A stretch of DNA of 50,839 nucleotides. It comes from Nitrososphaeria archaeon. GTDB taxonomy: Archaea > Thermoproteota > Nitrososphaeria > Conexivisphaerales > UBA164. The notes beneath the pieces are model-generated. The model did not search any database. It worked only from the letters and a program-made list of their open reading frames with translations, and was not told where the DNA came from. Position 1 is the first letter of the stretch; every line of letters starts with the position of its first letter. Positions 3,202-47,003 of this stretch are shown piece after piece. The position numbers and the translations under genes were made by a program. Where the stretch lies: the NCBI GenBank assembly GCA_046536595.1, contig JAWDMM010000005.1, positions 1-50,839 of the forward strand. Direction: 5' to 3'.

Positions 3202-3530
3202 CCAATAAAGGTTGATAGGGGCGAAAGTCCACTTCAGCAAGCTGTAAACAGCCTCCTTATAGAAATTTTTAAGCCTTCTGCACATTATCTTTGCAGACAT
3301 ATGATGCCAATAAAGTCTCGCAGACCTCTATCTGGGGAATCCGCAATGTCTAGAATAAGGCCAGCACTTCAATCGAGCCAAATCAGCAATAGCGGAGCTC
3401 TGTCTGTGGAACGCAAGCTAGACGCCCGGGGATGATCGTGCCAATATGGTGAAATACTTTGCAAACATTTCTCATGTGAAAGCGTAGCTGTGAACATGAA
3501 AGCCATGACCTTGCGGCCAGGGTTGTTCAC
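3202..3530 (+). mobile_element. Non-coding IS200/IS605-like mini-element, copy A (LE + promoter + omega-RNA-like + RE); left boundary approximate
   Basis: Aligns by eye with 12289-12615, 28628-28956 and 46673-47003; ends in a hairpin + GTTCAC. Confidence 0.8.
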
Positions 3531-3583
3531 TCAAAGTCATGCAAGAATCTATATAAACTACGATTACAGTATTGGTTTTTATA

Positions 3584-5344
3584 ATGATCGATCATGCATT
3601 TTTGAGCAATGGTTATGGTTCTGCGCTTATTTCAAAAGATCTAAATGTTGATTGGCTTGCTGTACCGCGGTTCGACTCTTCACCTCTTTTTTGCAATCTG
3701 CTCGATGAAAGCAAAGGCTGCACATCAACTATAAAATTTGACACTGAGGTAGCTTTTGAAAGAAGCTACATAAACGATTCTATTTTGCTAAGAACCAATG
3801 TAATAAAAAACAAAGAAAAAATAGCTTCTGTAATCGACTTTATGCCCTTGGCTGAAAGCGCTCTAATGAGGATTATAAGTTCAAATGATTCATTTGAAGT
3901 TTATGTTAAACCATCTTTTAACTATTGTATGATTGTGCCAGCTGTTTACAAAGAAGCTCAAGGAGCTATTTTTAAAGATCCTAACGGAAAACAGGCATTA
4001 GAGTTTAAGTACGTTTGGAATTCTAAAGTTGAAGAAAAAACAAGCTATTCATGGAAGTTTTATCCAGGAAAAGGTTATCTGTTATTTCTTTACTCAGCCG
4101 ATGTAGGTTATGGGCTTTTTAGCAAGAAGAGCAAAGTCTATTCGATTCCATCAGAGGCAATGCCAGCTGCTGTAAGCTATTGGAAATCTTTACTTGGAAA
4201 TACAAACATCAATCCCCCAGCTTGGGCAACCCGTGTTTTTTATTCATCTATTTTAGTTATTTTGGGTTTAATGTACAAACCATCAGGAGCGCTGATATCT
4301 TCTCCCACAACTTCTCTTCCTGAAATAATCGGAAGTGTCCGCAATTGGGATTACAGATATGCTTGGGTAAGGGATTCGAGCTTGGCCGCAGAAACATTAA
4401 TCAAGATAGGATATGTGATAAAGGGAAGGGAGATACTTAACTTTCTGATAAACGTTTTAGATCCTTCTATGAAGCCTTTTAATCATACGCTTTTTACTGT
4501 AGATGGTGGGCCACCGCCATCTGAATACACAGCAGACTGGCTTAGCGGATATAATAATTCAAGACCGGTAAGAATAGGAAACGCTGCCCATCTTCAGATA
4601 CAGCTAGATATTGAAGGTGAATTTATGAACGCTTTATCAACCTATTATAAATTTACTAAAGATAAAATCTATTTAAAAAACGTATGGTGGGCAGTAAAAT
4701 CTATATCAAAATACATAATAAAAAACTATAATAAAAGGGATTCAGGTATATGGGAAGAAAGAGATCTTCCAAAACACTACACACACAGTAAAGTTAATAT
4801 GTGGAACGCTTTGGTTAAAGCGGCAGAGCTTGCAAAAGAACTTAACAGAAGCACCGAGGCCGATGAGTGGAAGCTTAAAGCAGATCAAATAAAAGATTAT
4901 ATATTGAAAAATGCTTGGAACGAAGATGTTGGCTCATTTGTAAGATTTTTTGGATCTAAGGATATAGATGCCAGCCTTCTGGTTATGCCTATTTACGGTT
5001 TAATTGGAATTGATGATGACAGGTTTTTACAAACGTTCAAGAAGATTGAAAAAGAACTGGTTAAGGATCATTTAGTTTTTAGATACAAGAAAGACTTTCT
5101 TGGAAGCGTCGAATATCCTTTTGGATTGGCTAGCTACTGGATCGCTAAAATCAAGCTCATGCAAGGCGATTATAAAGAGGCAGAGAAATATATTAGAAAA
5201 TTAGTTTACTGCGCTAACGATCTAGGTCTCTTGGGTGAGCATATAGATCCAGTGAAATGTGAACCAAGAGGCAATTATCCGCATGTCTTTTCGCATATAG
5301 CTGTTTTGATGGGAATATACGAGCTTTCATCAGAAAGAAAATAA
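3584..5344 (+). CDS. Glycoside hydrolase family 15 (trehalase/glucoamylase-like)
   Basis: PTTSLPE, RNWDYRYAWVRD, GIWEER, GNYPHVFSH motifs. Confidence 0.9.
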   Translation: MIDHAFLSNGYGSALISKDLNVDWLAVPRFDSSPLFCNLLDESKGCTSTIKFDTEVAFERSYINDSILLRTNVIKNKEKIASVIDFMPLAESALMRIISSNDSFEVYVKPSFNYCMIVPAVYKEAQGAIFKDPNGKQALEFKYVWNSKVEEKTSYSWKFYPGKGYLLFLYSADVGYGLFSKKSKVYSIPSEAMPAAVSYWKSLLGNTNINPPAWATRVFYSSILVILGLMYKPSGALISSPTTSLPEIIGSVRNWDYRYAWVRDSSLAAETLIKIGYVIKGREILNFLINVLDPSMKPFNHTLFTVDGGPPPSEYTADWLSGYNNSRPVRIGNAAHLQIQLDIEGEFMNALSTYYKFTKDKIYLKNVWWAVKSISKYIIKNYNKRDSGIWEERDLPKHYTHSKVNMWNALVKAAELAKELNRSTEADEWKLKADQIKDYILKNAWNEDVGSFVRFFGSKDIDASLLVMPIYGLIGIDDDRFLQTFKKIEKELVKDHLVFRYKKDFLGSVEYPFGLASYWIAKIKLMQGDYKEAEKYIRKLVYCANDLGLLGEHIDPVKCEPRGNYPHVFSHIAVLMGIYELSSERK

Positions 5345-5383
5345 ATCAAAACATTTATTAAAAATTGAATAGTTTGTTTGTTT

Positions 5384-5935
5384 ATGAAGTTTTTAGGAAT
5401 TTCTGGTACTCCTAAGCTTGATTCTCTGAACAGCATGCTACTCTATAATGCTTTTGAACTTCTTAATAGGGAGCATCAATGGGAAGTAGTTTCTGTAGCT
5501 AACATTCCAATTTTTGAACAAACAGAAGAAGCAGATTCAGTGCAAAAACTAAGAAAAAAAGTTAAAGAATCGGACATTGTTGTTATATCCACACCGGAAC
5601 ACAACCACAGTTATTCTGCTTCTTTAAAAAACGCTATAGATTGGTTATCTGTACCGTTGGATGAAAATCCTTTTCGTTGGAAGGTTGTAGCTACGATGTC
5701 AGCTACCACAGGATCATTAGGTGGACCTAGAGCTCAGGAACATCTCTGGGTTGTCCTTAAATCGTTGGGGGCAATTTTAGTGCCCGGCCCTGAAGTATTT
5801 TTAGTTAATGCAGACAAAAAGTTTATTGAAGGAAAGTTAACAGATGAAATTGCAAAAAAATTCATTACAGAACTTTTGAATAACTCTATAATTCTTGCTA
5901 ATGCCATCAAATGTGGCTTAAATCAAAAATCTTGA
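5384..5935 (+). CDS. NAD(P)H-dependent FMN reductase (ChrR-like)
   Basis: TPEHNHSYSASLKNAIDWLS, GGPRAQ. Confidence 0.9.
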   Translation: MKFLGISGTPKLDSLNSMLLYNAFELLNREHQWEVVSVANIPIFEQTEEADSVQKLRKKVKESDIVVISTPEHNHSYSASLKNAIDWLSVPLDENPFRWKVVATMSATTGSLGGPRAQEHLWVVLKSLGAILVPGPEVFLVNADKKFIEGKLTDEIAKKFITELLNNSIILANAIKCGLNQKS

Positions 5936-6080
5936 ACTACTTTTATTTTAAAGTATTTTACGCAAAAATAAAATTAATCTTTTAAATTGTAAAGATTTTT
6001 TACAATTCCTGTAAATATCGTTTGTTCTTTAAACCTAAACAGTTCAAAATTTTTATATTATGGTTTTTTAATTTTTTATC

Positions 6081-7307
6081 GTGGAGGAAAGGTCACCGTT
6101 AAAGATAGCAGCAACAAGAGGTTATGTCACGCTTATAAAAGGGCATCCTGGTACAGGTAAAACTCTTTTTTCTTTATCTGCCGGTGCCTATTTTGGAAAG
6201 ATAAAATACATATCTTATTCAGAACCAGAAAGTTATATAAAAGAAAAGCTAAAAAATACGACTAATAAAAATGTTGAGCTTAAATTCTTAAACGTGATGG
6301 GTAATGCCGAAGTAGTTATTTCTGAAATCTTGGACGGTCTTAAATCGGGGTACTTAGTCATAATAGATTCTATCAATGGAATGCTAGAAAACTTTAAAGA
6401 AAAAAGGCCCATAGAACAGATCCTTTATGGTTCTTCTAAAACCAAAAATGGCGCTATTATGATGATATATGAAGGTGAATCTGAAAGCGAAGCCGATTAC
6501 ATTTCAGATGCAATTTTAAACTTTGGATATACAGAAATAAAAGGAAGAAAAATAAGGAGCATTAAAGTAATAAAAGATAGAAACTTTCCTGTCAGAGAAG
6601 CGCCTTTTCTTTTTACAATAGTAAACAATAAAATCAAAATTTTAAATAGATCATTGAAATTTAAATTGGACAACCTTAATGCTATTAAAAGGGTGGATAT
6701 GCCCGAATCTCCCTATAAGATGCTTGAAGAATCAGATATTCTTGTAAAAGTTTCTAAAGAAGTCCATAACGACCTGATAAGGCTCATGAAAGTATTTTTT
6801 GCGACGTTTTTCAAGAAAAAAGGTATGAAAGTGTTATTAGAGCTTTCTGATGAAGAAAAAGAAGATTATGTTAAATACACTATTGTAACCCTGGCTGGAG
6901 AAAATTTTATTCCTATTTTGTTAAAAAAACCTTATTTAAAAAGCTATGAAGAAGCTAAAAACTACCTAACACAGCTCGAAAAATATCTGGCCAATCAAGA
7001 TTTAGGGGTGTTAATATCCGATACTTTATCGGAAGAGGGTTTAGCAAGTTCAGAAGCCTCATTGTATAGCAAATTTTTACAAGAAAAGAACTGGATTCTT
7101 AAGAAACATTTAATAAAAAAACTGACATTCTCTTATGAAAATCACGTTTCAACGGCATTTCAGGAAAAGTACTCTGACGCTATAAAGAGTTTGACGGATT
7201 TTTATGGAACTCTGGTATGGATTTCTGAAAAGCCATTGGGCAACGCTTACGCTATAGAAGTAAACAACACACGAGGAATTGTTTTAAAAAATCATAAACT
7301 TGTATGA
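6081..7307 (+). CDS. KaiC/RAD55/GvpD-like RecA-fold ATPase
   Basis: Walker A GHPGTGKT, Walker B VIIDS, DYISD...R.I.VIKDR; degenerate second domain. Confidence 0.7.
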   Translation: MEERSPLKIAATRGYVTLIKGHPGTGKTLFSLSAGAYFGKIKYISYSEPESYIKEKLKNTTNKNVELKFLNVMGNAEVVISEILDGLKSGYLVIIDSINGMLENFKEKRPIEQILYGSSKTKNGAIMMIYEGESESEADYISDAILNFGYTEIKGRKIRSIKVIKDRNFPVREAPFLFTIVNNKIKILNRSLKFKLDNLNAIKRVDMPESPYKMLEESDILVKVSKEVHNDLIRLMKVFFATFFKKKGMKVLLELSDEEKEDYVKYTIVTLAGENFIPILLKKPYLKSYEEAKNYLTQLEKYLANQDLGVLISDTLSEEGLASSEASLYSKFLQEKNWILKKHLIKKLTFSYENHVSTAFQEKYSDAIKSLTDFYGTLVWISEKPLGNAYAIEVNNTRGIVLKNHKLV

Positions 7308-8421
7308 TGCTTTGAACAGAAGGATAAAAGTTCTTTCTTTGCTTTTTTTTCTCTCGTTTCTATCCCAGATGCCCCTTTCATTAATAAGGTTCTACGCTCC
7401 GATTTTTGCTTTAAAAATTGGGGCTACAGGTCTTATACTCGGCCTGATGGGATTTTCTTATGGGGCAGTGTATATATTTTCAGCATATATAATCGGCAAA
7501 AGATCTGAAAGTATAGGTTATACAAGTTCTTTAGAACTCGGTCTAATTTTTTATGCGTTAATAATTTTACTGTATATATTTATTAAGATTCCTTATTTGC
7601 TGATACTGATAAGAGCATTAGAGGCGCTGTCTATGGGTTTTGTTTGGCCTTCTTTAGAAGCATCGTCAAAATTTTTTGATAATAAAAAAGCATCTACAGC
7701 AGTGTATACAATAGGCTGGTCTTTTGCTTCTACAATAGCGCCATATTTAGCTTCATCATTTACTTCAATTTTTGTTTTACCTTTTATAATAGCATCGACT
7801 TTTTCCCTAGCTGGAGGAATTTTAGCTTCATATTTCCAACCTCTAAAGTATGAAGAAACAAAAGTTTTATCAAAAATAGATTTAAGTAAAGAAATTATAT
7901 TTCCAATTTTCTTTTATGGTTTTTCGGTTTCAATCATTTATGCGTTTTATTCAGCATTTGCCGAAACTGCGTTTGGTATAAAGGGTTCAGGAATAATAAT
8001 GTCAATTTCAAGCATTTTTATAGTAATAGCTTTCCTCTCAGCCCCTTTGTTTAAGGATGACCCAAAATTTGGAATAACATTAGGACTGGGGCTTCAGGTC
8101 TTTTATGTGGTTCTTTTTGTCTATAAAGAGTTTTTTCTGCAGCTTGTTTCACTTTCTTTAATTTTTTACGGTGCCGGGATTCTATATTTTTATGTTCTTT
8201 ATAAAATTATGCTTACAGAAACCAAAGGTCTTGGCATAAGAACAGGAATGTTTGAATCAAGCATAGGTGCTGGATATACTTTGGGGCCTTTAATATGCGG
8301 CCTTGCTTCTTTGCATGGATTAGATTATGTATGGCTAGTAGCCTTTATTTCAGCTATAGTTTTTTTCATTTTTTGGATTATAATGGAATTATTACCGTCA
8401 AAACGCACTTATAAGCAATAA
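7300..8421 (+). CDS. MFS transporter
   Basis: ~12 hydrophobic segments, IIGKRSESIG loop, G...GP motif. Confidence 0.85.
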   Translation: MYDALNRRIKVLSLLFFLSFLSQMPLSLIRFYAPIFALKIGATGLILGLMGFSYGAVYIFSAYIIGKRSESIGYTSSLELGLIFYALIILLYIFIKIPYLLILIRALEALSMGFVWPSLEASSKFFDNKKASTAVYTIGWSFASTIAPYLASSFTSIFVLPFIIASTFSLAGGILASYFQPLKYEETKVLSKIDLSKEIIFPIFFYGFSVSIIYAFYSAFAETAFGIKGSGIIMSISSIFIVIAFLSAPLFKDDPKFGITLGLGLQVFYVVLFVYKEFFLQLVSLSLIFYGAGILYFYVLYKIMLTETKGLGIRTGMFESSIGAGYTLGPLICGLASLHGLDYVWLVAFISAIVFFIFWIIMELLPSKRTYKQ

Positions 8422-8526
8422 AAAATAATTGAATGATAAAAAATAAAAAATGTTAGGAATGACTGTATTCAGGACAAGTATGTAAAAAATTTATAATCTG
8501 GTCAAGTTAAATTTTTCCGTTGGTAA

Positions 8527-9906
8527 ATGTTACTCAGTGATACTTTAAGCAGAAATTATATAAAATTAGATCCAGAAAGGGATAAAGAAGTTAAAATTTA
8601 TGTATGTGGGGTTACTGTTTACGACTACAGTCACGTAGGTCACGCTCGAGTTTTTATAGTCTTTGATGTATTAAGGAGATTACTGCAAAAGAAAGGATTT
8701 AAGGTAACTTATGTTCAGAATTTTACAGATATAGACGATAAAATCATAAATAGAGCCAAAGAATTGGGCACAAGTTATAAAGATGTTTCTGAAAGGTTTA
8801 TCAAATCATACCTAGAAGATTCTGATGCCTTAAACCTTCTGAGAGCAGACCTTTACCCAAGAGCAACAGAATACATCCGAGATATGGAAGAGTTTATAAA
8901 AGGACTGATCAATAAGGGTCACGCATATGTTTCTAGTGATGGAGTTTATTATGACGTTAATTCATTTAAAGACTACGGTAAACTTTCAAAGATAAAAAAA
9001 GAAGAACTTATAGCGGGAGCAAGGATAGAAGCCAACGAGAATAAAAAAAACCCTTTGGATTTTGCTTTGTGGAAAAAATATGATGAAGAACCATATTTTG
9101 AAACAGTATTTGGAAAGGGAAGACCGGGTTGGCATATAGAATGTTCCACCATGATTCGTAAAAACTTGGGCGAGACGATCGATATTCATGGTGGTGGAGA
9201 AGATCTAATTTTTCCACATCATGAGAACGAAATAGCTCAAAGTGAAGGATTAAGCGGTAAACCATTGGCTAAGATATGGATGCACGTTGGCTTAGTTAAG
9301 TTTGGAAAAGAAAAGATGAGTAAAAGTCTTCACAACGTTGTATATATAAGAGATTTTTTGAAAAAATATGGACCAAATACTTTGAGAGTTTTTTCGCTCA
9401 GTTCCCATTATAGGGCTCAGTTGGAATTCAATGAAGAAAAAATAAAAGAAGCTGTTGAAAGCTGGAAATCGATAGAAGACGCTGAATATAGCTTAATACA
9501 GACTTTCGACATAAGCTCTGAGGTGGATATAACTGATATAAAAAGAGAAGTAGAACTTGCATTTAAAGATCTAGAAAATGACTTGGACACGCCATCAGCT
9601 TTAAACCATATGTTAAGGGCGTCAAAGATCATAAACAAACTTTGGGCATCTTTAAAGATTTCAGCAGAAGTTTCATATAAGCTAAAGGCTTTTCAAGATC
9701 TTTTTGAGGTATTCGGGTTTAAACTCGCGGAAACTTCATCTAAAGATAGAGAAATGATACAAGAATTGATTATAAAAAGAAATAAATTAAGGCAAGAGAA
9801 AGATTTTAAAAATGCTGATGCTATAAGAAAAACTTTGTTAGATTATAAAGTGAAGCTTATCGATACGCCTTTAGGAACGTTTTGGAGAAAAGTTGAAGTT
9901 TTATGA
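8527..9906 (+). CDS. cysS: Cysteinyl-tRNA synthetase
   Basis: YVCGVTVYD..HVGH, GRPGWHIEC, KMSKS. Confidence 0.97.
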   Translation: MLLSDTLSRNYIKLDPERDKEVKIYVCGVTVYDYSHVGHARVFIVFDVLRRLLQKKGFKVTYVQNFTDIDDKIINRAKELGTSYKDVSERFIKSYLEDSDALNLLRADLYPRATEYIRDMEEFIKGLINKGHAYVSSDGVYYDVNSFKDYGKLSKIKKEELIAGARIEANENKKNPLDFALWKKYDEEPYFETVFGKGRPGWHIECSTMIRKNLGETIDIHGGGEDLIFPHHENEIAQSEGLSGKPLAKIWMHVGLVKFGKEKMSKSLHNVVYIRDFLKKYGPNTLRVFSLSSHYRAQLEFNEEKIKEAVESWKSIEDAEYSLIQTFDISSEVDITDIKREVELAFKDLENDLDTPSALNHMLRASKIINKLWASLKISAEVSYKLKAFQDLFEVFGFKLAETSSKDREMIQELIIKRNKLRQEKDFKNADAIRKTLLDYKVKLIDTPLGTFWRKVEVL

Positions 9907-10008
9907 AAAATTTTTAACGACAGTTCTTAAAAAGTAAGAATTTTAAAACAAAAAGTACAAAGTTTTTGACCCAATTTATTAAATATTTTTTAGCCAAAAA
10001 ATATTGCA

Positions 10009-10293
10009 ATGGACTTAAGGGAAAAAGGATGGGAACTATTAATTCAATCTTTACAAAAATACGGTGGAGATACAGTTAAACAGGTTATACTTTGGCATCT
10101 TGAACACGTTTTTTATATTAACCAATCAAACTATTTAGATAATCCTGAAAAGCTGGTCAGCGCTCTTTATTCAATATACGGAAACGCCTTCATGATAATT
10201 GAGAAAGACTTTTGCTATTCACTGAAAGGAATGGGAATTATGTGCGATACAGGAATTTTAAGCGCGTTAATGTCTTTAAAGTATAAACTGTAA
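10009..10293 (+). CDS. Small hypothetical protein (DUF3227-like)
   Basis: Pattern VILWHLE...NPEKLVSALYSIYG...IIEK recalled from archaeal DUF3227-type proteins. Confidence 0.5.
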   Translation: MDLREKGWELLIQSLQKYGGDTVKQVILWHLEHVFYINQSNYLDNPEKLVSALYSIYGNAFMIIEKDFCYSLKGMGIMCDTGILSALMSLKYKL

Positions 10294-10378
10294 TTAAACT
10301 TTTGTACAACAGTATATTTTATATGCAATAAAAGATACGCTTATATTTCCTCTATTGTATGGATTGTCGTGATATATA

Positions 10379-11293
10379 ATGAAAGTACTAGTTTGTGATC
10401 CGATAGATGAAGAAGGTATAAACATGCTTAAAGAAAAAGGGTTTGTTGTAGATTATAAACCAAGTATAACGGCTCAAGAACTTAAAAGTGTAGTTTCAGA
10501 TTACGATGCTTTGTTGGTAAGGAGCAGGACTAAAGTTACAAAAGAAATAATCGAAGCTGGTAAAAATCTTAAGGCTATAGGCAGAGCTGGCGTAGGCCTT
10601 GACAATATAGATTTAGAAGCCGCTAAGGCAAAAGGTATAAAGGTAGTAAATGTGCCTGAGTCTTTAACTCAGTCAGTAGTAGAGTTAGTGATCGGATTTA
10701 TGATAGCATTAAGCAGGTACATGTGCAGAGCGGATAAAACTATGAAAGAAGGTAAATGGTTAAAAACTGAATTTCTTGGTCATGAGCTAAAAGGTAAAAC
10801 TCTTGGCGTTGTTGGATTTGGGAGAATCGGTAAAGGTGTAGCTAAGGTCGCTCAAACTCTGGGCATGAAGATATTGGTTTACGATGTAATTTCTGTAGAC
10901 CAAAAAACTCTCATGGAATATGATGCAAAACAAGCAAGTTTAGAAGAAGTTTTAAAGGGTTCTGACTTTATTACGATTCACGTACCAGGTGGTCCACAAA
11001 CTTATCACCTTATAGATTTGCCAAAGCTTAAATTGATGAAGCCCAACGCTTTCATTATAAACACTTCTAGAGGTAATGTTATAAAAGAGGAAGATTTAGT
11101 ATACGCGTTAAAGAATAAATTGATAGCAGGAGCAGCTTTGGATGTATTTGAAGTTGAACCACCGACCAATAAAGAACTTTTAAGCTTAGATAATGTCATA
11201 TTAACGCCCCACATAGGCGGGGAAACAGTCGAAGCACAACGCTTGGCCGCAACTCTTACCGTATCTAGGTTAATAGAGGCGTTAGGGCAATGA
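10379..11293 (+). CDS. D-isomer 2-hydroxyacid dehydrogenase (SerA-like, no ACT domain)
   Basis: [34 protein letters not shown]. Confidence 0.9.
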
Positions 11294-11712
11294 AAAACAT
11301 GTATGATTATATAAATGAAACATGGAACAAATATTATAAAGAAAAGCCAGAAGAATACAAACAATACCTGATAAAGTGGAGAAGCGAACCAAGAATTTTC
11401 AGAATAGAAAAACCAACTAGATTAGACAGAGCAAGATCTTTGGGCTATAAAGAAAAACAAGGCTACATAGTTGTAAGAGTTAGGGTCAGCAAGGGCGGAA
11501 TGAAGATTCAAAGACCATCTTCCGGAAGAAGACAGAAGCATGCAGGATCAAAGCTTATCTCAGGGCAAAAATCTAAAGAAGAAATTGCTTTGGAAAGGGC
11601 ACAAAAGGAATATGTCAATTTGAGGCCGCTCGGTTTGTATTACTTGGGGGAAGATGGTAAATACGTATGGTATGAAATAATTTTTTATGATCCAGCTATC
11701 GTTAAAAATTGA
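11290..11712 (+). CDS. rpl15e: 50S ribosomal protein L15e (short form)
   Basis: WRSEP...KPTRLDRARSLGYKEKQGY, EDGKYVWYEII..DP. Confidence 0.95.
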   Translation: MKNMYDYINETWNKYYKEKPEEYKQYLIKWRSEPRIFRIEKPTRLDRARSLGYKEKQGYIVVRVRVSKGGMKIQRPSSGRRQKHAGSKLISGQKSKEEIALERAQKEYVNLRPLGLYYLGEDGKYVWYEIIFYDPAIVKN

Positions 11713-12287
11713 CAGACGAAGAAAGGATCAAAAGGCTAATAAAAGATATTTATATGTCGAAAATTACTGGTGCTGAATTTTCGTTAAAAAATGAAGATAA
11801 AGATCTTCTATTAAAAAATAAATTAATAGATAATTATGGCAATTTAACAAATGAAGGACGTGAAAAAATAAAAGTTGTCTTGGCTGGAGGAGTTTTTGAC
11901 ATAATCCATCCGGGGCACGTTTATTTTTTAAAAAAAGCTAAAGAACTGGGAGACGTTCTTGTAGTTGTTGTAGCAAGAGATGTTAATGTTGTAAGGTTTA
12001 AGGGAGTTAAGCCTATGCATTCTGAAAACCTTCGTGCAGAACTTGTAGGGGCTATAAGATATGTAGATGTGTCAATACTAGGCGATGAAAAAGACCTTAT
12101 GAAAACGGTAGAAAGGGTTAAACCAGACATAGTTGCGCTCGGCTATGATCAGGTTCATGATGAAAAATGGATAAATTCAGAAGCTAAAAAAAGAGGTATA
12201 ATGCTACAGATTGTGCGTTTAGATTCTCCTTATCCTAACATAAAAAGCAGAAATATAAAGAATGATCCCAGGTTCGGATGGTTTTAA
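11709..12287 (+). CDS. ribL: FAD synthetase (cytidylyltransferase family) with N-terminal extension
   Basis: GGVFDIIHPGH, VVARD, LGYDQ. Confidence 0.8.
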   Translation: MTDEERIKRLIKDIYMSKITGAEFSLKNEDKDLLLKNKLIDNYGNLTNEGREKIKVVLAGGVFDIIHPGHVYFLKKAKELGDVLVVVVARDVNVVRFKGVKPMHSENLRAELVGAIRYVDVSILGDEKDLMKTVERVKPDIVALGYDQVHDEKWINSEAKKRGIMLQIVRLDSPYPNIKSRNIKNDPRFGWF

Positions 12288-12288
12288 T

Positions 12289-12615
12289 ATTAATGGGTTA
12301 AGGGGGCGAAAGCCCCCATCAGCGAGCTTTGGATAGCCCCCTTATAGAAACGTTTTTTAAAGCCTTCAACGCACGATCTTTACAGGCATAAACTGCCCTG
12401 AAGCCATGCAGACCTTGGTCGGTAAATACGCAATGCCTAGAACAAGGCCAGCACTCAGATCGAGTAAAAAAGCAATAAGGGGCTTTGTCTGTGTGACGCA
12501 GGCGAGATGCAAGATTGTTGAGCCTCTACAAGCAGCATGATGAAGTATTCCTCATGTAAAAGCAAGCGCGGCGATGAACAGAAAAGCCCTGACCTTTCGG
12601 TCAGGGTTAGTTCAC
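12289..12615 (+). mobile_element. Non-coding IS200/IS605-like mini-element, copy B
   Basis: gggttaagggggcgaaagccccc...gcccccttatagaaa, TATA, ...gcgatgaacagaaaagCCCTGACC tttc GGTCAGGG ttaGTTCAC. Confidence 0.85.
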
Positions 12616-12719
12616 TTCTTAAATACATTATCATAATTTTGAAGAAAAAACTAAAACTGAAAGTAGAACTCAAGCAATCTTACAAAGAATTTATAAACGT
12701 TCAGGTTTAAATTTAATTC

Positions 12720-13394
12720 ATGAAACAAGTAAAGATAAGGTGGTTAGGCCATGCAGCATTTGAAGTACAAAGTCAGGATATTGATATATTAATAGATCCC
12801 TGGCTTACAAACCCTCTTTCTCCAGTCAGGCCAGAAGAAGTTAAGCCTGATTATATCGTTGTAACGCATGACCATAATGATCATCTTGGTGAAGCCATAG
12901 AAATATCAAAAAGGACAGGCGCTCCCATAATAAGCGTTTATGAACTCGCTAATTATATAAACGAAAAAGGGGGAAAATCCATAGGGATGAACATAGGCGG
13001 CCCTGCAGTTTTAAAAAACGATCTATATGTATACCTTACGCAAGCTTTTCATAGCTCTACACATGGCTCTCCTACGGGAGCAATAATTTACATAAACGGC
13101 TTAAGTATCTATCATGCAGGTGATACAGGGTTGTTTGGAGATATGAAACTAATTGGGGAAGTTTACAGTCCAGATGTAGCCCTTCTTCCTATTGGAGGTT
13201 TCTTTACAATGAACCCTGAACAAGCGGCAGTAGCTGTCCAGTTAATTTCACCCAGATATGCTATACCAATGCATTACAACACTTTTGACGTAATAAAGCA
13301 GGATCCTTATATTTTTTCCGAAAAAGTAAAGAAACTTCGGCCTTCTACTGAAGTTTTAATATTAAAACCCGGTGAGTCAAGGGATTTAAGTTGA
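12720..13394 (+). CDS. Metallo-beta-lactamase-fold hydrolase (UPF0173)
   Basis: WLGHA, THDHNDH, YHAGDT, PMHYNTF. Confidence 0.9.
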   Translation: MKQVKIRWLGHAAFEVQSQDIDILIDPWLTNPLSPVRPEEVKPDYIVVTHDHNDHLGEAIEISKRTGAPIISVYELANYINEKGGKSIGMNIGGPAVLKNDLYVYLTQAFHSSTHGSPTGAIIYINGLSIYHAGDTGLFGDMKLIGEVYSPDVALLPIGGFFTMNPEQAAVAVQLISPRYAIPMHYNTFDVIKQDPYIFSEKVKKLRPSTEVLILKPGESRDLS

Positions 13395-14113
13395 CTGAAC
13401 TTTTATATCTTCAAGATAGCTACATAAAAGATTTTACAGCAAAAGTTCTAGAAGATTTTGGGGATTCTGTAGTTCTTGACAGAACTGCCTTTTACCCAGG
13501 TGGGGGTGGACAGCCTAATGATGAGGGCTGGTTTCTTCTAGATAACTTGACAAAATATGAAGTAAAAAAAGTAGAAAAAAGAGAAGACGTTGTGTTACAT
13601 TATATAATTAAAGAAAAATCTTTGAACATTGCAGGAAAAAGTATCAAAGGTCTACTGGACTGGGATAAGAGATACACGTACATGAGATATCATACAGCTA
13701 TACACCTGCTGGATGCTTTGATGAGAAAAAATTTTGGTAAAGCATTCCTGACGGGCGGGCAGATATACGCTGATAAAGCGAGAGTTGACGTTGATTATCC
13801 GGATTTGAACAAAAACATGATGCCGCAAATTGAATACATGGTAAACAGTGAAATAAAAAACGGTCGAGACGTGATTATAAAATTTTTATCCAAAAAAGAG
13901 GCAGAAAGCATTCCTGATATAGCAAGAACCAAGCCAGGACAGGAGCTTCTTAAAAAGCTTGAAACTGTCAGAGTTGTAGAAATTGCTGGTTTAGACGTTC
14001 AGATGGATGGGGGAACCCATGTTAGAAACATAAAAGAAATAGGAGGCATAAAGATAACTAATTTTGAAAACAAAGGTTCACATAACAAGAGGATAGAATT
14101 TGTTCTTACGTAA
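13391..14113 (+). CDS. alaXM: Alanyl-tRNA editing protein AlaX-M
   Basis: FYPGGGGQPND, MRYHTAIH, DGGTHV. Confidence 0.92.
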   Translation: MTELLYLQDSYIKDFTAKVLEDFGDSVVLDRTAFYPGGGGQPNDEGWFLLDNLTKYEVKKVEKREDVVLHYIIKEKSLNIAGKSIKGLLDWDKRYTYMRYHTAIHLLDALMRKNFGKAFLTGGQIYADKARVDVDYPDLNKNMMPQIEYMVNSEIKNGRDVIIKFLSKKEAESIPDIARTKPGQELLKKLETVRVVEIAGLDVQMDGGTHVRNIKEIGGIKITNFENKGSHNKRIEFVLT

Positions 14114-14191
14114 TACTACCATTATTTTTTCACATTATGTCATATGAATTTAACCTAACATTTTTTAAGACGTTATGAGCAATAAATCGCA

Positions 14192-14479
14192 TTGAAAATA
14201 AGAGATCTTTCAATCGGAAGCGCAAGAGTTAAGGTAGAGGGAAAAGTAGTAAATAAATCTGAACCTAAAACAGTAAAATTGTGGGATGGTAGAAATGCAA
14301 ACGTAGCAGACGCCCTTTTAGAAGATGGAAGCGGAAGCATAATACTAAGTTTATGGAATGAGCAGATAGAAATGGTAGACATAGGCGATAAAGTACAGAT
14401 CGTCAACGGCTACGTAAGCAACTTTAAAAAAGAAAAAAGACTTAATCTTGGGCGGTACGGTAAGATAATAAAAGTTTAA
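14192..14479 (+). CDS. ssb: Single OB-fold ssDNA-binding protein (crenarchaeal SSB type)
   Basis: DGSGSIILSLW, NGYV..F....LNLGRYG. Confidence 0.85.
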   Translation: MKIRDLSIGSARVKVEGKVVNKSEPKTVKLWDGRNANVADALLEDGSGSIILSLWNEQIEMVDIGDKVQIVNGYVSNFKKEKRLNLGRYGKIIKV

Positions 14480-15489
14480 AACTTTAGAAGAATCTTACCT
14501 ATGTGATTTCTTTTTTCCATTCTTATCTGAGCCTTATCGACGTCATCAATCGGAAAAACGCTATCTATGAGAGGTTTAATCCTTCCTTGTGAAACTAAAT
14601 TTAAAAGATCCAGAAGGTCCTTCCGTGTTCCAAGATAAACGCCAATCATATCTATATTGTTTGCATAAAGTAGTCGCAGATTCATCTGCATTTCTGACCC
14701 GGTAGTCATAGCCATGTTAATTATTTTACCTCCTTTTCTTACCAGTTTTAAAGCCGTGGATGTATAAACTCCGCCAAGGGCGTCAAAAACGGCGTCTACG
14801 CCATAATTATCAGTTAGCTTTAACACGTTTTCTGATAGCTTGTCATCCGGTTTTATTACTTCATCAGCTCCTAGTTTTTTAAGTATTTCAGCTTTCCATT
14901 CATAAGATGTAGTAGTTATTACTTTCATGCCAGTAGCTTTAGCTGTTTGAAGTGCTGCTACACCTGCTCCTCCGCTACCGCCTAAGATTAAGACAACTGA
15001 GCCGGGTTCTAATTTTGCTCTTTTTATTAATCCATGATATGCTGTTGTATAAGCAACTGGCAAAGCAGCAGCATATTCTAGTGACACGTTTTCGGGTAAT
15101 TTAAGAACGTTTTTTGCTGGAACGTTTACGAAATCAGCGAAAAATCCATCTTCATGCACTCCATAAATACCTCTATAAAAGCAGCTGTTCTCATAGCCAT
15201 TCAAACAGTTTTTACAAAAACCGCAGAATTTCATCGGATATAAAATTACTTTATCGCCCTTTTTGAAAATGCTATCTGATGGGTCTTCTACATAACCTGA
15301 AAGATCAGAACCAAAGACTCTTGGAAAAGGTTGTCCGGGCAGATCCATTCTCCCCCATATATCTACATGGTTTACAGAACCGAAAGCAGCTTTTACTAAT
15401 ACCCTACCGGGTTCGCTTTTTGGAACCTCTTTTTCTATTTTTTTTATGACTTCAGTTCCTCCTGGTTTTTCATATACGAATTCTTTCAT
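14476..15489 (-). CDS. Zn-binding MDR-family dehydrogenase/quinone oxidoreductase
   Basis: NHVD, GSD, CGFCKNC..C, GGSGGAG. Confidence 0.88.
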   Translation of the reverse strand: MKEFVYEKPGGTEVIKKIEKEVPKSEPGRVLVKAAFGSVNHVDIWGRMDLPGQPFPRVFGSDLSGYVEDPSDSIFKKGDKVILYPMKFCGFCKNCLNGYENSCFYRGIYGVHEDGFFADFVNVPAKNVLKLPENVSLEYAAALPVAYTTAYHGLIKRAKLEPGSVVLILGGSGGAGVAALQTAKATGMKVITTTSYEWKAEILKKLGADEVIKPDDKLSENVLKLTDNYGVDAVFDALGGVYTSTALKLVRKGGKIINMAMTTGSEMQMNLRLLYANNIDMIGVYLGTRKDLLDLLNLVSQGRIKPLIDSVFPIDDVDKAQIRMEKRNHIGKILLKF

Positions 15490-15554
15490 ATTTATCACTT
15501 AAAAACTTATGGAATTATTATAATTTAAATATACCTAATATAAAAAGTTAAGCG

Positions 15555-16691: not shown

Positions 16692-17208
16692 CTTTGTTGC
16701 AACTACATACAGGAATTCAAGACATGAGCTTGAACATGAGTTAAAAGCGCTTTTGAAAGATTTTGAGCCAATTGTATTTTTTCCCTTAAAATTAAACAGC
16801 GTTTCTTACGGAAAGCTTAACGGAGATCCTATAAGGGCTTCGGAAATTCTGTGGAATTTAGCTTATTCAGATCCATGGAAAGTAAGGAGAACTCTCAGGT
16901 TTGTTCCTTTGGAAATCAATTGTAACGTTGAAACCATAGAATTAAAGAAAAAGGCAAAAGAAATAGCGGAAAAGATACCGGCAGGTTCAAGTTACAAAAT
17001 AGAGGCCGAGCTCAGATTTTCCGACCTAAATCAAAATGAACTCATTGAAATTATAGCTGAAGAAATAAAAAGAAAAGTAAATTTGGAAAAGCCTGAATAC
17101 ATAGTTGAAGTTCAGATTATAAATAAAAGTTGCGGAATGGCCTTGCTAAAGGAAAACATGATTTTTAAGAGTCTTGAAGCTAAGCTTGCAGGCAGCAATT
17201 TTCCTTAA
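16675..17208 (+). CDS. THUMP-domain RNA-binding protein
   Basis: LRFVP, SYKI...R, KVNLEKPE.IV.VQII. Confidence 0.8.
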   Translation: MQLEFNFVATTYRNSRHELEHELKALLKDFEPIVFFPLKLNSVSYGKLNGDPIRASEILWNLAYSDPWKVRRTLRFVPLEINCNVETIELKKKAKEIAEKIPAGSSYKIEAELRFSDLNQNELIEIIAEEIKRKVNLEKPEYIVEVQIINKSCGMALLKENMIFKSLEAKLAGSNFP

Positions 17209-17267
17209 TTATTTTTAAATAAAAACGCTAAAGTGTTTTTATATTGCCATTTATAATCAATTTTTGA

Positions 17268-17717: not shown

Positions 17718-17774
17718 AAAAGTTTAAGTTTTAAGCTTATAAATAAGAAAAGCATACTTTTAAATAATAAGCTA

Positions 17775-28626: not shown

Positions 28627-28627
28627 C

Positions 28628-28956: not shown

Positions 28957-28957
28957 A

Positions 28958-35489: not shown

Positions 35490-35540
35490 CAGCAAGCACC
35501 ATCATTTAACTAGTAAAGATCAAAATATAAGGGTTTTAAC

Positions 35541-35616
35541 TTTTTGGGGTTAAGGGGCGAAAGTCCTCTTCCGCGAGCTTTGAGCTTTGGATAGCCCCCT
35601 TATAGAAATGTTTTTA
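35541..35616 (+). mobile_element. Truncated mini-element copy D (left end only)
   Basis: ggggttaaggggcgaaagtcc...ggatagcccccttatagaaatgttttt; 7-nt tandem duplication GAGCTTT at 35575-35588. Confidence 0.8.
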
Positions 35617-36870
35617 GAATTTTTTAGGCTCTATGTACTCCTGTCCATTCATATAGTTAACTAACGGCTTTGGTATTTGAATTCTTCCATCTGGCAAATA
35701 ATTGTTTTCCATTATAGCTATTAATGCTCTTTCTGTGGCAACGAGGGTAGAATTTAATGTATGTACGTATAAGGTTTCATTGCCTTTTTTATACCTTATC
35801 TTAGCCCTCACAGCTTGCCATTCAAGAGTGTTAGAGCATGAAACGGCTTCTCTATATTTATTCTGTCCAGGTAACCAGACTTCTAAATCGTATTTTTTAG
35901 CAGCCGGCGCTCCTAGTTCTCCTGAGCAGACATTTACAACTCTGTAAGGAATACCTAAACTTTGGAAGAATTCTTCTGCGTTTTTTATCAATTCTTCATG
36001 ATATTTCCACGAATCTTCAGGCTTACTGTATATAAACTGTTCAACTTTCTCAAATACATGCACCCTAAATATTCCTTTAGTATCCCTTCCGTGAGCACCC
36101 GCTTCTTTCCTAAAACAGGGCGAGATGCCTATGTATTTTAAAGGTAAGCTCTTTTCATCTAAAATTTCATCATAATGATAACCGAGGATAGCATGCTCTG
36201 CAGTTGTCAAAAGGTATAAATCTTCATTTTCTATCTTATATATAGCTTCTTCAAATGCAGAAATATCAACAGCGCTTTCTAAAATAGCCCTCCGTAACAT
36301 ATATGGAGGTTGCAATAAGGTATAACCTCTTTTGGTACCAAAATCAAGGCCATATGATATAAGCGCATAATTTAACCTCGCAAGGTCTCTTTTTAGATAA
36401 TAAAATCTCGCACCGCTAGTTTTTGCCGCTCTTTCTACATCAATCAAATCTAATTTTGTTCCTATTTCAATATGATCTGGTCCAACTTTTCCCGCTTCCC
36501 CCCACGTTCTGACTACCTGATTGTATGACTCATCTGTACCTTCTGGTACTGACGGGTCAACAAAATTTGGCATACTTAACTGAAGCTGATTTATTTCGTC
36601 TTCTATTTCAGAAAGTTCTTTTTCTGTATTTTTTATTTTTTTATCCAGTTCTTTTAGCCTTTCTCTATCAATTTCTTTGTTACCGGCTTTCATTTTTCTT
36701 GCAACATCTTCTTCTATGAGATTTTTTTCATGCCTGAGGTTGTTAATTTCGGAGATTAGCTTTCTTCTCTTTTCATCGAGTTCTAATAAGCGGTCTAACG
36801 GAAAGTCAGAATGTCTTTTTTTAAGGGATTCTCTGTATTCTTCAAGTCTATCTTTTATTATTCTTAACAA
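35614..36870 (-). CDS. serS: Seryl-tRNA synthetase
   Basis: TAEH, CFRKEAG, GIFRVHVFEKVEQF, HTLNST..ATER. Confidence 0.97.
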   Translation of the reverse strand: MLRIIKDRLEEYRESLKKRHSDFPLDRLLELDEKRRKLISEINNLRHEKNLIEEDVARKMKAGNKEIDRERLKELDKKIKNTEKELSEIEDEINQLQLSMPNFVDPSVPEGTDESYNQVVRTWGEAGKVGPDHIEIGTKLDLIDVERAAKTSGARFYYLKRDLARLNYALISYGLDFGTKRGYTLLQPPYMLRRAILESAVDISAFEEAIYKIENEDLYLLTTAEHAILGYHYDEILDEKSLPLKYIGISPCFRKEAGAHGRDTKGIFRVHVFEKVEQFIYSKPEDSWKYHEELIKNAEEFFQSLGIPYRVVNVCSGELGAPAAKKYDLEVWLPGQNKYREAVSCSNTLEWQAVRAKIRYKKGNETLYVHTLNSTLVATERALIAIMENNYLPDGRIQIPKPLVNYMNGQEYIEPKKF

Positions 36871-44489: not shown

Positions 44490-44495
44490 CTAAAT

Positions 44496-44567
44496 TGGAC
44501 CGGGGGGGACTTGAACCCCCGACCTCCCGCGTGCAAGGCGGGCGTTCTACCCCTGAACTACCGGCCC
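44496..44567 (-). tRNA. tRNA-Ala(UGC), no intron, CCA not encoded
   Basis: GGGCCGGTAGTTCAGGGGTAGAACGCCCGCCT-TGC-ACGCGGGAGGTCGGGGGTTCAAGTCCCCCCCGGTCCA; G3:U70 pair. Confidence 0.97.
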
Positions 44568-44756
44568 ATTTGTCTGGCTTATCAGTTTTCTTCATCCCTT
44601 TTGGTCAGTCCGCCCATCGTAAGACAAGCCATTAGACTGGGCTTTTAATGCAGCACTCCAACCTTTTGGTTGGAGTTTCCGGTTCACAGCCGCGCTTTGA
44701 CACACGGTCGTCCCCGGTCATCTTGTCCGTATATCCCACGTAAAGCCGCGTCAGGC
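44568..44756 (-). ncRNA. Candidate structured K-turn RNA (~189 nt) directly 5' of tRNA-Ala
   Basis: GC-rich, three hairpins, paired C/D-like boxes, upstream BRE/TATA. Confidence 0.6.
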
Positions 44757-44777
44757 AAAAAATCTTCCTTAAATTTA

Positions 44778-44793
44778 CTTATAAGCATTTCTG
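44778..44793 (-). promoter_or_regulatory. BRE-TATA promoter for the ncRNA-tRNA-archease unit
   Basis: Minus strand CAGAAA-tg-CTTATAAG, ~29 nt before G44756. Confidence 0.65.
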
Positions 44794-44875
44794 TAAAGGA
44801 CTATTTATTAATTCGCGTAAGGTGACTTACAGAGTTCCTAACCCCATAAATTTAAAAACTAATTGTTTTTGTTTG

Positions 44876-45268
44876 TTATGATTTTATGCGAACTATTTTT
44901 ATTTTGTCCATAACTTTCCAGTATTCTACTTCTTGTCCCTCCTTTATTCTAGGTTTAAGATCTTCCTCCATGTATTCAGCTTCAAGAGTCTGAAAAGTTT
45001 GAAGATCCATAAGCTGCACAACGTTTCCTGTAACGCTAAGTACCTGGCCAGAACCTTTTTCAATGATGGGTACTTCAACCTTTGATTCTGATGGACCCAC
45101 ATAGCTTTTTTTTGCTCCAGTAAATATATCAATCCCTACCAGCCTGACTTTAGCGCTTCCATGTTTTCCAGGTTTGCTTTTTTCAACTTCAACAACTTTG
45201 CAGGGGGAGTTATCGATCATTATGTATGAACCCTCTTTGATATCTCCTAATTCCATTGGTTTTGTCAT
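44876..45268 (-). CDS. eif5a: Translation factor aIF-5A
   Basis: SKPGKHGSAK hypusine motif. Confidence 0.97.
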   Translation of the reverse strand: MTKPMELGDIKEGSYIMIDNSPCKVVEVEKSKPGKHGSAKVRLVGIDIFTGAKKSYVGPSESKVEVPIIEKGSGQVLSVTGNVVQLMDLQTFQTLEAEYMEEDLKPRIKEGQEVEYWKVMDKIKIVRIKS

Positions 45269-45394: not shown

Positions 45395-45456
45395 GCATGA
45401 CGAAACTGAACTGCGTTGATGGCTCTGCCAAATGAAATGATGCACCTCGGCTGATC
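45395..45456 (+). ncRNA. Box C/D sRNA candidate
   Basis: C ATGACGA 45397-45403, 12-nt guide, D' TTGA, hairpin TGGC-tct-GCCA, C'-like AATGAAA, ~13-nt guide, D CTGA 45451-45454; BRE/TATA GAAAgccTTTTAAA at ~45359-45372. Confidence 0.7.
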
Positions 45457-45459
45457 TTT

Positions 45460-46563
45460 ATGCAGAAAAATCAGGTAGAAGAAGGAAACGTAAAAATAGT
45501 AACGAAGATCGGTAATGATACTGCTTTCTATAATCCGTTGGGCGAATTTTCAAGAAGCGTTTTTGTTAAAATTTTCAGCGCGTATGCACTAATGAAAGGC
45601 GGAAATTTAACTTACGCAGAGCCATTTTCAGGAAGCGGGATAAAAGGCATAAGGCTTTCTGTTGAGGGAGGAGGCTTTTCTACTTTTATCTTTAATGATA
45701 TAGATAAAGGAAGTTTAAGGATTACAGAAGAAAACTGGAAAAATAACGTGGTAAATGGAGAAGGAATTTTCTATAACCTTGAGGCAAACGATTTTTTTCA
45801 GATTTTGGTCAACAAGGGAAGAGTCGACGGTTTAGATGTCGACCCTTTTGGCTCATCGTCGCCTTACATTTTTAACGCAATAAGGGCAGTTAGAGGTGGA
45901 GGGCTAATCTCTTTTACTTTTACAGATACACAGGTTTTGGGCGGGATACATTCAGAAGCGCTGGAAAAAAGGTATCACATTAGGGCAAAAAAAGTGCAGT
46001 TTCTAAAAGAGCTCCAGGCAAGGATCGCAATAACTAACGTGATTTTAGAAGCTTCAACAATCAATATAGCGGCATTTCCTGTTTTTGCCCATGTAGACAA
46101 ACATTATATAAGAACATACTACATTATAAAGCCAAAAGCTTCTCTCTCTAGCACACTGATTAAAAGTATAAAGTATATAACTACTAGCGATTGTGGTTAT
46201 AGTTCATTAGAAGAATCTTTTTACTGTCCTTACTGTGGTAAGCCTACAGATAACATAGGACCTTTATACATCGGTAATATATTTAACAAAGATCTAATTA
46301 AAAAAGCGCATGAATTATCTGAAGACTGTAAAAGGTGTTCTGAACTTTTTGAAATAGCTTTAGAAGAAAACGATAATATCCCATTTTATTATGATACTAG
46401 GTATCTGGCTTCCATGCTAAGAACAACAACGCCTTCAAAAAATATATTACTAGAAAGGTTAAGAACTTCAGGTTATAAATCATCACGGACAGTTTTTTGC
46501 CCAACTGGGCTTAAAACCTGCGCACCTTTTGGTATTTTAGAATCATTGTTTTATGTTAAATAG
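45460..46563 (+). CDS. trm1: tRNA (guanine26-N2)-dimethyltransferase
   Basis: FYNP, SGSGIKGIR, DVDPFGSS, TDT..L.G, HYIR, GPLY.G. Confidence 0.92.
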   Translation: MQKNQVEEGNVKIVTKIGNDTAFYNPLGEFSRSVFVKIFSAYALMKGGNLTYAEPFSGSGIKGIRLSVEGGGFSTFIFNDIDKGSLRITEENWKNNVVNGEGIFYNLEANDFFQILVNKGRVDGLDVDPFGSSSPYIFNAIRAVRGGGLISFTFTDTQVLGGIHSEALEKRYHIRAKKVQFLKELQARIAITNVILEASTINIAAFPVFAHVDKHYIRTYYIIKPKASLSSTLIKSIKYITTSDCGYSSLEESFYCPYCGKPTDNIGPLYIGNIFNKDLIKKAHELSEDCKRCSELFEIALEENDNIPFYYDTRYLASMLRTTTPSKNILLERLRTSGYKSSRTVFCPTGLKTCAPFGILESLFYVK

Positions 46564-46672
46564 AGTTTAATTTGCTGAAATGGTTTTAGTACGGAATGTA
46601 CAACAGTTTTAAAAATTATTTAATTAAAGCATTAAAGTTTTTTAAAGCTAAAGCAATACTTTAAAATTTAAC

Positions 46673-47003
46673 ATAACTGTGTTAAGGAGGCGGAAGTCCC
46701 CTTCTGCAAGCTGTAAACAGCCTCCTTATAGAAATGTTCTTTAAAGCCTTCAGCTAATGATCTTTACAGACATAAACTGCTCCGAAAGCCATGCAGAATT
46801 CGATCGGGGGAATCTGCGATGCCTCAGATAAGTATAGCACTTCGACCAAGTGTAATCAGCAATAACGGAGCTCTGCATGTGGAACGCAGGCTAGACGCCC
46901 AGGGATGATCGCGCCAATATGGTGGAATACCTTGCGAACATTTCTCATGTGAAAACGTGATAGTGAACCGGGAAGCTTTGAGCTTACGTTCAGGGTAGTT
47001 AAC
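46673..47003 (+). mobile_element. Non-coding IS200/IS605-like mini-element, copy E
   Basis: Preceded by TTAAC, ends GTTAAC; highly similar to copy C. Confidence 0.85.

Follow-up and report, generated by a model that had tools for sequence, protein, structure and literature searches.

What are the gene-less stretches of about 330 bp that recur between the housekeeping genes of an uncultured hot-spring archaeon, and do they carry guide RNAs? The question arises from a single contig of 50,839 bases (34.8% G+C; contig C5 of the genome that we call G000), the whole of which is referred to below as the window; G000 itself comprises 1.54 Mb in 122 contigs and is 91% complete. The original prediction, made from the letters of the window, had taken these repeats for relatives of IS200/IS605 insertion sequences that together form a dispersed guide repertoire for a TnpB protein acting in trans. 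Our analysis supports the transposon ancestry of the repeats and not the repertoire. We consider it probable, in an estimate that includes the mechanism proposed below, that the copies are non-autonomous deletion derivatives of a tnpB-only element of the IS200/IS605 family, comparable to miniature inverted-repeat transposable elements (MITEs) or palindrome-associated transposable elements (PATEs).

A repeat search of the window recovers a 50-nt block present four times (near 3220, 12305, 28647 and 46689) and a 45-nt block also present four times (near 3338, 12425, 28769 and 46811), along with longer repeat families of two and three copies. The blocks belong to four full copies of 328–335 bp, designated A, B, C and E, which a MAFFT alignment places on one common layout together with a left-end fragment, D. 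Pairwise identity among the full copies is 66–88%, and the likeness among the copies is far above chance. Across G000, copy A has 45 BLAST matches at E ≤ 0.001 and a profile of the family has 98 nhmmer matches. All five stretches are intergenic and lie on the + strand, and their G+C content (46–48% for the copies) exceeds the 34.8% of the window. No open reading frame (ORF) is common to the copies: among 16 full copies from G000 and related genomes, the longest ORFs (41–88 aa) vary in strand and position. The repeat search, the alignment and the ORF comparison therefore bear out the original description of four copies of about 330 bp plus a left-end fragment, with two amendments. Copy boundaries, which we set from empty sites and the family alignment, place the true starts 1–6 bases to the left of those first proposed, and the list of five members, each of which stands, had missed a divergent sixth on the minus strand (member F, ~44648–44851).

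The origin of the repeats can be read from a full element of 1373 bp elsewhere in the genome (C63:1362-2734). This element has the same left end as the copies (profile positions 1–73), a tnpB ORF, and the same right end (189–343), with the tnpB stop codon falling within the last 10 nt. Because both ends are shared with a full-length tnpB element, we assign the copies to the derivatives of IS200/IS605. The 330-bp copies align to the C63 element piecewise, retaining the left end, the box upstream of tnpB, degenerate codons from before the zinc finger (for example ...KAMQTSI*GIRN...) and, after a gap that corresponds to the deleted zinc-finger part, the last ~140 nt. These last ~140 nt are common to gene-less copies and tnpB-bearing elements; in the full elements (C63, C77, C79 and C34 of G000, and the loci of relatives) they overlap the tnpB stop codon and finish at the right end. 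In G011, for example, this 3' core occupies C8:216769-216918 and tnpB occupies 215720-216910, and the same arrangement is found in G013, G010, G016 and G024. The original reading of the 3' half of the copies as a tnpB 3' end is thereby substantiated. Fragments from the N and C termini of the same type of tnpB lie on G000 contigs C13, C22, C33, C34, C77 and C79, and the genome holds 38 matches to the TnpB zinc-ribbon domain PF07282.

The 330-bp family, with a median pairwise identity of 70.9% (n = 13), is one of several short forms. A second family, consisting of seven copies of ~245 bp with a median identity of 90.8%, fuses the tnpB TATA region and the first tnpB codons (GTGCCCAA) directly to the last ~140 nt, and further short forms measure ~205–225 bp, one of them in the window. 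When the 55 left-end-bearing nhmmer matches in G000 are sorted by length, 16 measure 281–400 bp, 8 measure 280 bp or less, 5 measure 401–1000 bp and 1 exceeds 1000 bp; for the other 25, several of which sit at contig ends, no right end lies within 2 kb. Many G000 contigs terminate within family members. Two pairs of contigs share a repeat copy together with both of its flanks (C3:136-464 with C14:21465-21810, and C16:13959-14290 with C86:2451-2779), and these are probably strain variants that were co-binned in the assembly.

The ends of the elements and their target are those expected of this transposon group. TTTAA precedes 45 of 51 left ends in G000, copy A being without the canonical form, and at copies B and C the TAA of the target doubles as the stop codon of the upstream gene. 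The left end consists of GTTAAG, which is complementary to TTAAC across the junction of target and element, directly before the hairpin GGGGCGAAAGTCCCC; the right end consists of ATGAAC, a covarying hairpin and GTTCAC. The terminal arrangement of (G/A)TGAAC, hairpin and GTT(C/A)AC that had been noted earlier is present in all four full copies. The two ends are unlike each other, and there are no terminal inverted repeats. Such ends are hallmarks of single-strand transposition in the IS200/IS605 group, as known from IS608, and by analogy the subterminal hairpins and the short complements upstream of them would be the contacts of the transposase TnpA.

Comparison with related genomes indicates that the copies have moved. 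Sites B, C and E are empty in the sister genome G002, where the flanks are 91–95% identical. At site C, G002 reads AAATTTAA followed directly by ATCATTC, whereas the window reads AAATTTAA, 330 bp of element, and then ATCACTC; insertion therefore took place exactly 3' of TTTAA and without target duplication. Copy B is also missing at its site in G007, site C is also empty in G007, G008 and G003, and site E is also empty in G007; in G005, site E holds a very diverged, strongly decayed family member (G005:C29:2466-2824). Because B, C and E, three of the four full copies, are insertions specific to the lineage, the copies act as mobile DNA and not as fixed genes, and the IS605-type insertion seen at the empty sites, together with the ends shared with the tnpB element, accords with the earlier view of them as non-autonomous IS605 derivatives. 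Site B in G005 (G005:C1:71300-71979) spans ~680 nt, as compared with the 328-bp copy in the window.

Site A is filled in both G000 and G002 (G002:C65:~13030-13385, locus L114), with the same right junction, and the two copies are 69.5% identical (228/328, with 22 gap columns), as against 85–88% for flanking third codon positions; the G002 copy is no nearer to A than to C or E. This mismatch and the patchy occupancy of site E could stem from recurrent insertion at a single site, from precise excision, from gene conversion between copies or from rapid decay of immobilized copies.

We next consider the 3' core, which has the position expected of an omega-RNA scaffold. Its structure was taken from the minimum-energy fold of one member (−63 kcal/mol) and then tested by pair counts. 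A plain MAFFT alignment was made of 31 sequences, drawn from five genomes and from two named metagenome-assembled records. In it, 86.6% of cells that should pair do so, as compared with 27.7–44.4% when the partners are slid; double changes occur in 18 of 50 pairs (5–12 when slid); and on four of five measures the observed value is out of reach of all 500 shuffles, 11 of which attain it on the fifth. Covariation extends to long-range helices, as in pair 44-136 (GC in 13 sequences, AU in 8) and pair 54-126 (AU in 10, CG in 8), and the right-end hairpin emerges as covarying helix 9. With 52 distinct sequences from several genera aligned to a covariance model (alignment A4), double changes extend to 47 of 50 pairs, against 20–28 when slid, and covariation scores 0.341, the comparison values staying at or below 0.087. 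The covariation anticipated by the original prediction is thus significant on both sets. The covariance model, R1, matches 25 of 151 genomes sampled from the class and 11 of 16 in the archaeon's own family, and its matches overlap the tnpB 3' ends of the same clade in distant genomes (for example G011:C8, G013:C10 and G024:C52). Plain MAFFT alignments in which subtypes were mixed yielded hardly any consensus in RNAalifold (4 pairs in one run) because indels misalign the helices. The 5' part of the 330-bp family (~positions 95–195) shows some local hairpins by eye only. Taken together, these comparisons support an omega-RNA-like anatomy for the 3' core.

Each full copy in the window can be laid out in these terms, all on the + strand; the 16 nt beyond each right end, a length chosen by analogy, is the putative guide. 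Copy A (335 bp, 3196–3530) follows a degenerate target, TTTTA in place of TTTAA (3191–3195), and comprises a hairpin at ~3218–3231, a promoter-like box at 3257–3273 and the 3' core at 3391–3530, which model R1 matches at 3392–3530 with 94.8 bits; its flank is 3531–3546. Copy B (328 bp, 12288–12615), which has a second subtype of the middle part, follows TTTAA at 12283–12287, whose TAA is the stop codon of the ORF at 11709–12287; its hairpin lies at 12303–12316, its box at 12342–12362, its core at 12476–12615 (R1 match 12477–12615, 62.8 bits) and its flank at 12616–12631. Copy C (330 bp, 28627–28956) follows TTTAA at 28622–28626, whose TAA ends proA (27379–28626), with hairpin, box and core at 28645–28658, 28684–28704 and 28817–28956 (R1 match 28819–28956, 95.6 bits); its flank, 28957–28972, overlaps the 3' end of the convergent gene glmS (28958–30778, minus strand). 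Copy C stops 1 nt short of the glmS stop, and any RNA leaving it would run antisense across the glmS 3' end. Copy E (332 bp, 46672–47003) follows TTTAA at 46667–46671 and has its hairpin at 46687–46700, box at 46726–46746, core at 46864–47003 (R1 match 46865–47003, 104.9 bits) and flank at 47004–47019.

The two remaining members are incomplete or divergent. Fragment D (35535–35613, + strand) consists of TTTAA at 35535–35539 and an element that runs from 35540 to ~35613, with the left end and the promoter-like box TTATAGAAA at 35600–35608; its nhmmer match (35536–35619) covers profile positions 2–79, there is no 3' core, and the similarity stops beside serS (35614–36870, minus strand). Member F (minus strand, TTTAA at 44852–44856) is a short form of ~204 bp that was found by model R1 (40.2 bits, E 1.4e-7). 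It has a degenerate left end, a TATA-like box of the form GCTTATAAG..TTTAAG and a core of ~104 nt (44648–44751), lies between tRNA-Ala (44495–44568) and an ORF at 44876–45268, and is similar to C42:~11155-11259 and C58:6960-~7165 of G000.

A further feature retained by the copies is the region upstream of tnpB. The box TTATAGAAA followed by a T-rich run is found in A, B, C, E and D, and it aligns with the TATA-like region located 25–35 nt upstream of the tnpB GTG start in full elements. Homology shows that the copies have kept the tnpB promoter region, which is thus a predicted promoter. An internal promoter of the form GAAA-N-TTTAA had been proposed earlier; it corresponds to the box TTATAGAAA plus the T-rich run.

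We compared contigs of four metatranscriptome runs with positions 1–20000 of the window; such contigs show no starts, ends or strand. Two of them, X15 (11726–12402) and X16 (11849–12360), from two runs of two studies, extend from the upstream gene into copy B. This bridging fits read-through, with neither transcript nor strand proven and DNA in the libraries possible. Contig depth is low over both copies in this part of the window. Contig X15 also breaks off at 12402 and resumes at 3334, with 20 foreign letters, which we read as an assembly chimera across repeat copies. At the very start of the window (1–667), each of the four runs shows a summed contig depth (142–417) that greatly exceeds that of the rest of the stretch and may reflect a conserved or highly expressed gene common to other organisms.

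If the copies encoded guides against other loci, the flanks should find targets elsewhere, as the proposed repertoire against host or viral DNA implied. We took as guides the 16 nt past each of 37 right ends in G000. Elsewhere in the genome these have 113 near-matches (at most 2 mismatches in 16 nt), none of which follows TTTAA, and the only exact or near-exact second copies lie in duplicated contigs. Viral contigs contain no exact match to the 20-nt flank of A, C or E, and none to the right-end pattern. The AT-rich 20-nt flank of B has five exact matches there, representing two distinct sequences preceded by TCGAAA and TGTAAA, and none follows TTTAA; we read these as chance. The notion of a dispersed repertoire is therefore not sustained. 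Each putative guide is the DNA adjoining its own insertion and would match only the joint left by its own excision, as IS605 biology predicts.

A candidate protein partner for such an RNA is known from the same lineage. Intact cognate TnpB proteins of 419–420 aa with 91–96% identity occur in public metagenomes, and one of 88% identity is labelled Nitrososphaeria archaeon; with the C63 element, these answer the earlier expectation of a tnpB with matching ends in the lineage. The cognate clade (C63:1534-2721 of G000 and its relatives) has Gln in place of the RuvC-II Glu of solved TnpB-like structures (VFQDD). All 11 of the aligned proteins, the most distant at 44% identity, carry this Gln, and the RuvC-I and RuvC-III Asp residues are kept. 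In this respect the clade resembles the TnpB clades with a 'rearranged catalytic site' described in the part of PMC10691335 used here, and the cognate TnpB may be a rearranged or a binding-only nuclease. A nuclease-dead reading of the protein is weakened by the invariance of Gln across a wide clade with intact members, a pattern that resembles the published rearranged clades. G000 also contains a second, unrelated TnpB set, with apparently intact genes of 421–423 aa on C48, C78, C67, C11, C25, C42 and C1 (PF07282). The C63 TnpB misses this set in tblastn at 1e-5, and most of its genes have no match to the family ends, which indicates a separate insertion sequence family.

On these grounds we propose the following course of events, in which transcription, TnpB binding, cutting and repair would join the anatomy, homology, target, mobility and conserved fold described above. 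A Y1 transposase (TnpA) supplied in trans would excise and insert the copies as single strands at TTTAA. An omega-RNA made up of the scaffold and ~16–20 nt of flank would arise from the tnpB promoter that the copies retain, or by read-through of the upstream gene, and cognate TnpB from a full element elsewhere would bind this copy-derived RNA. TnpB would then cut the TTTAA-adjacent joint left by excision, and recombination with the sister chromosome would restore the element. The guide module would thus be kept for the persistence of the gene-less element and not for the benefit of the host.

A bolder version of this proposal, which we put forward tentatively and think doubtful as a whole, is that the short forms are 'guide-only' parasites of TnpB homing. 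Independent deletions (the 330-, ~245- and ~205–225-bp forms) would have converged on the left end, tnpB promoter, scaffold and right end, with a leaderless tnpB start welded in one family to the first scaffold helix, and the resulting cassettes would outnumber intact tnpB in genomes with no detectable transposase. As a corollary, the mismatch at site A (69.5% inside the element versus 85–88% at flanking third codon positions) and the patchy site E might result from elements being swapped or restored through RNA-guided cutting and repair, and not from fresh transposition.

A number of observations weigh against the proposed mechanism. The first concerns the proteins. None of the cognate tnpB copies assembled in G000 is whole, all being either damaged or truncated at a contig end: the C63 gene has a nonsense codon, C77 a frameshift, and C22, C47 and C65 stops, and those on C13, C33, C34 and C79 are partial at contig ends. 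Most tnpB copies in G005, G007, G016 and G024 also carry stops. Because of the RuvC-II Gln, the nuclease activity of the cognate clade is uncertain. No Y1 transposase was found in G000 (0 matches to PF01797 and NF033573; the genome is 91% complete) or in G002, G005 and G007, the other three family-carrying genomes of the genus; the search covered incomplete metagenome-assembled genomes (81–92% complete), so absence is unproven. Six tnpA loci from other relatives have no ends matching the family. Two genomes of the genus that lack the family, G003 and G006, do have a Y1 transposase, at loci that likewise show none of the family's ends.

The second group of points concerns the RNA. The covariation would look alike for an RNA and for folded top-strand single-stranded DNA, and the descent of the copies from different parental tnpB elements may account for part of it; moreover, the fold was taken from a member of the tested set, and alignment A4 was itself fitted to the model. 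No Rfam family matches the copies at gathering scores or at E ≤ 1. The RNA-library contigs bridge the upstream gene and copy B, with no start, strand or 3' end, and DNA may be present in those libraries.

The strongest rival takes up several of these points. It holds that the copies are inert relics, plain decaying MITEs in which the core and box were kept as part of, or next to, ends needed by the transposase, or have survived from recent deletion, so that the RNA has no role today. The damaged tnpB genes (mostly pseudogenes or fragments across the genus) and the missing TnpA in G000, G002, G005 and G007 would fit this picture, as would the age of the 330-bp family implied by its 70.9% median identity. 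Copy A, with no canonical TTTAA and 30% different from the G002 copy at the same site, looks like unconstrained DNA, and the RNA-library contigs give no transcription start. Relics would not be expected, however, to show what the short forms share: at least three differently built forms all keep a 3' module of ~105–140 nt and a TATA-like box, and pairing has been maintained through many double changes in non-coding copies. Recent activity is further indicated by the lineage-specific insertions B, C and E and by the 91% likeness within the 245-bp family, and TnpB proteins of 91–96% identity remain intact in the environment. We therefore regard decay alone as rather unlikely, and prefer deletion derivatives that still exploit TnpB.

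A very improbable alternative is that the copies are host-domesticated guide genes for a nuclease-dead, TnpB-like regulator resembling TldR, which would repress or mark other host or viral loci. The neighborhoods of the copies, made up of housekeeping genes (glycosyltransferase, trehalase, proA, glmS, trm1, RNase Z and serS), are what such a role would lead one to expect, and the retained promoter-like box and a TnpB clade that has no canonical RuvC-II Glu are compatible with it. The guides themselves speak otherwise, being local flanks with no TTTAA-adjacent near-match among 113 and no TAM-adjacent viral match (TAM, transposon-associated motif). Copy presence also varies among sister genomes, and tnpB is not present as a single conserved gene of the host: the invariant Gln belongs to a large, multi-copy, transposon-borne clade, which fits the rearranged clades of PMC10691335, so far as that report was drawn on, better than it fits one domestication.

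Equally remote in our estimation is a cis-acting role, in which the copies would serve as promoters reading into a downstream gene (A, B and E) or as the source of an antisense RNA to a convergent gene (C versus glmS). An ORF in the same orientation does follow copies A, B and E, at distances of 41, 104 and 49 nt respectively, copy C comes to within 1 nt of the glmS stop, and the TATA-like box is directed outward through the right end. The sites, however, are simply TTTAA, often the stop codon of the upstream gene; the same genes have no insertion in sister genomes; and the RNA-library data give no link between the copies and expression of their neighbors. Group II intron fragments, CRISPR repeats and tRNA-derived repeats were rejected in view of the direct homology to tnpB, and searches with aragorn and Rfam yield tRNA-Ala only.

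Returning to the reading of the copies as deletion derivatives served by TnpB and TnpA in trans, a functional RNA module would make the family a gene-less archaeal transposon that makes use of its relatives' transposase as well as their RNA-guided nuclease, and selection would preserve the cassette of promoter plus scaffold. The family is also a predicted compact natural design, 'promoter-scaffold-guide', for a thermophilic TnpB that has an unusual RuvC-II residue and TTTAA as its TAM, and it would add an RNA family that is absent from Rfam. For annotation, the copies account for most intergenic repeats of G000 and for many of its contig breaks.

How does this family relate to known systems? 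The reports compared here are drawn on in part. In its position the core resembles omega-RNA, also called right-end element RNA (reRNA), of ISDra2 and of the Sulfolobus islandicus protein SisTnpB1, as well as the archaeal sense overlapping transcripts (sotRNAs; Rfam RF02656/RF02657, PMC12558985): in each, a structured region lies over the tnpB 3' end, extends as far as the right end and draws its guide from the flank. SisTnpB1 has the same TAM, TTTAA (10.1101/2023.03.06.531077), and omega-RNA is described as functioning in trans (10.1101/2023.11.20.567912). The present family differs from these RNAs in that no Rfam model matches it, its scaffold mostly occurs with no tnpB, and it is known here from sequence alone. 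TldR proteins offer a parallel of another kind, as TnpB relatives with an altered active site and a guide RNA. They are described, however, as domesticated host genes whose guides match promoters (10.1101/2023.11.30.569447), whereas the tnpB genes here are carried in multiple copies on transposons, and no second target is found for the guides.

Among gene-less elements, SMN1 is a MITE of ~320 bp from Sulfolobus/Saccharolobus that is mobilized by the IS605-type element ISC1733 (PMC3718332). It is likened to the present copies by description, not by sequence: both are of similar size, come from archaeal thermophiles, depend on IS200/IS605 and have no ORF. Sequencing runs that hold the present sequence are mostly hot-spring metagenomes. 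A search of species genomes for the exact right-end pattern returned three stretches, which belong to two records that bear the labels Candidatus Marsarchaeota archaeon and Nitrososphaerales archaeon; the pattern is strict and is uninformative on Sulfolobus and SMN1.

Another close published concept is that of the PATEs related to ISGst1 and ISGst5 of Geobacillus stearothermophilus, reported in a study of TnpB/omega-RNA homing in which PATEs 'often encode' omega-RNAs that need TnpB in trans (10.1101/2023.03.14.532601). PATEs and the present copies are alike in having no gene, IS605-type ends, omega-RNAs (here putative) requiring TnpB and TnpA in trans, and TAM-adjacent insertion. In the literature searched, we found no account of several deletion forms converging on promoter plus scaffold, of a tnpB start welded to the scaffold, of this non-canonical TnpB clade, or of gene-less copies exceeding intact tnpB. 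Gene-less IS605 elements with omega-RNAs for TnpB in trans are already in print, and the gain here is one of detail, not of principle. What we describe is a further, archaeal case that differs from the PATEs, compared by description only, in coming from an uncultured hot-spring archaeon, in its TAM of TTTAA, in keeping the tnpB promoter region (fused to the scaffold in one family), in having no TnpA found with it, and in a TnpB with a non-canonical RuvC-II.

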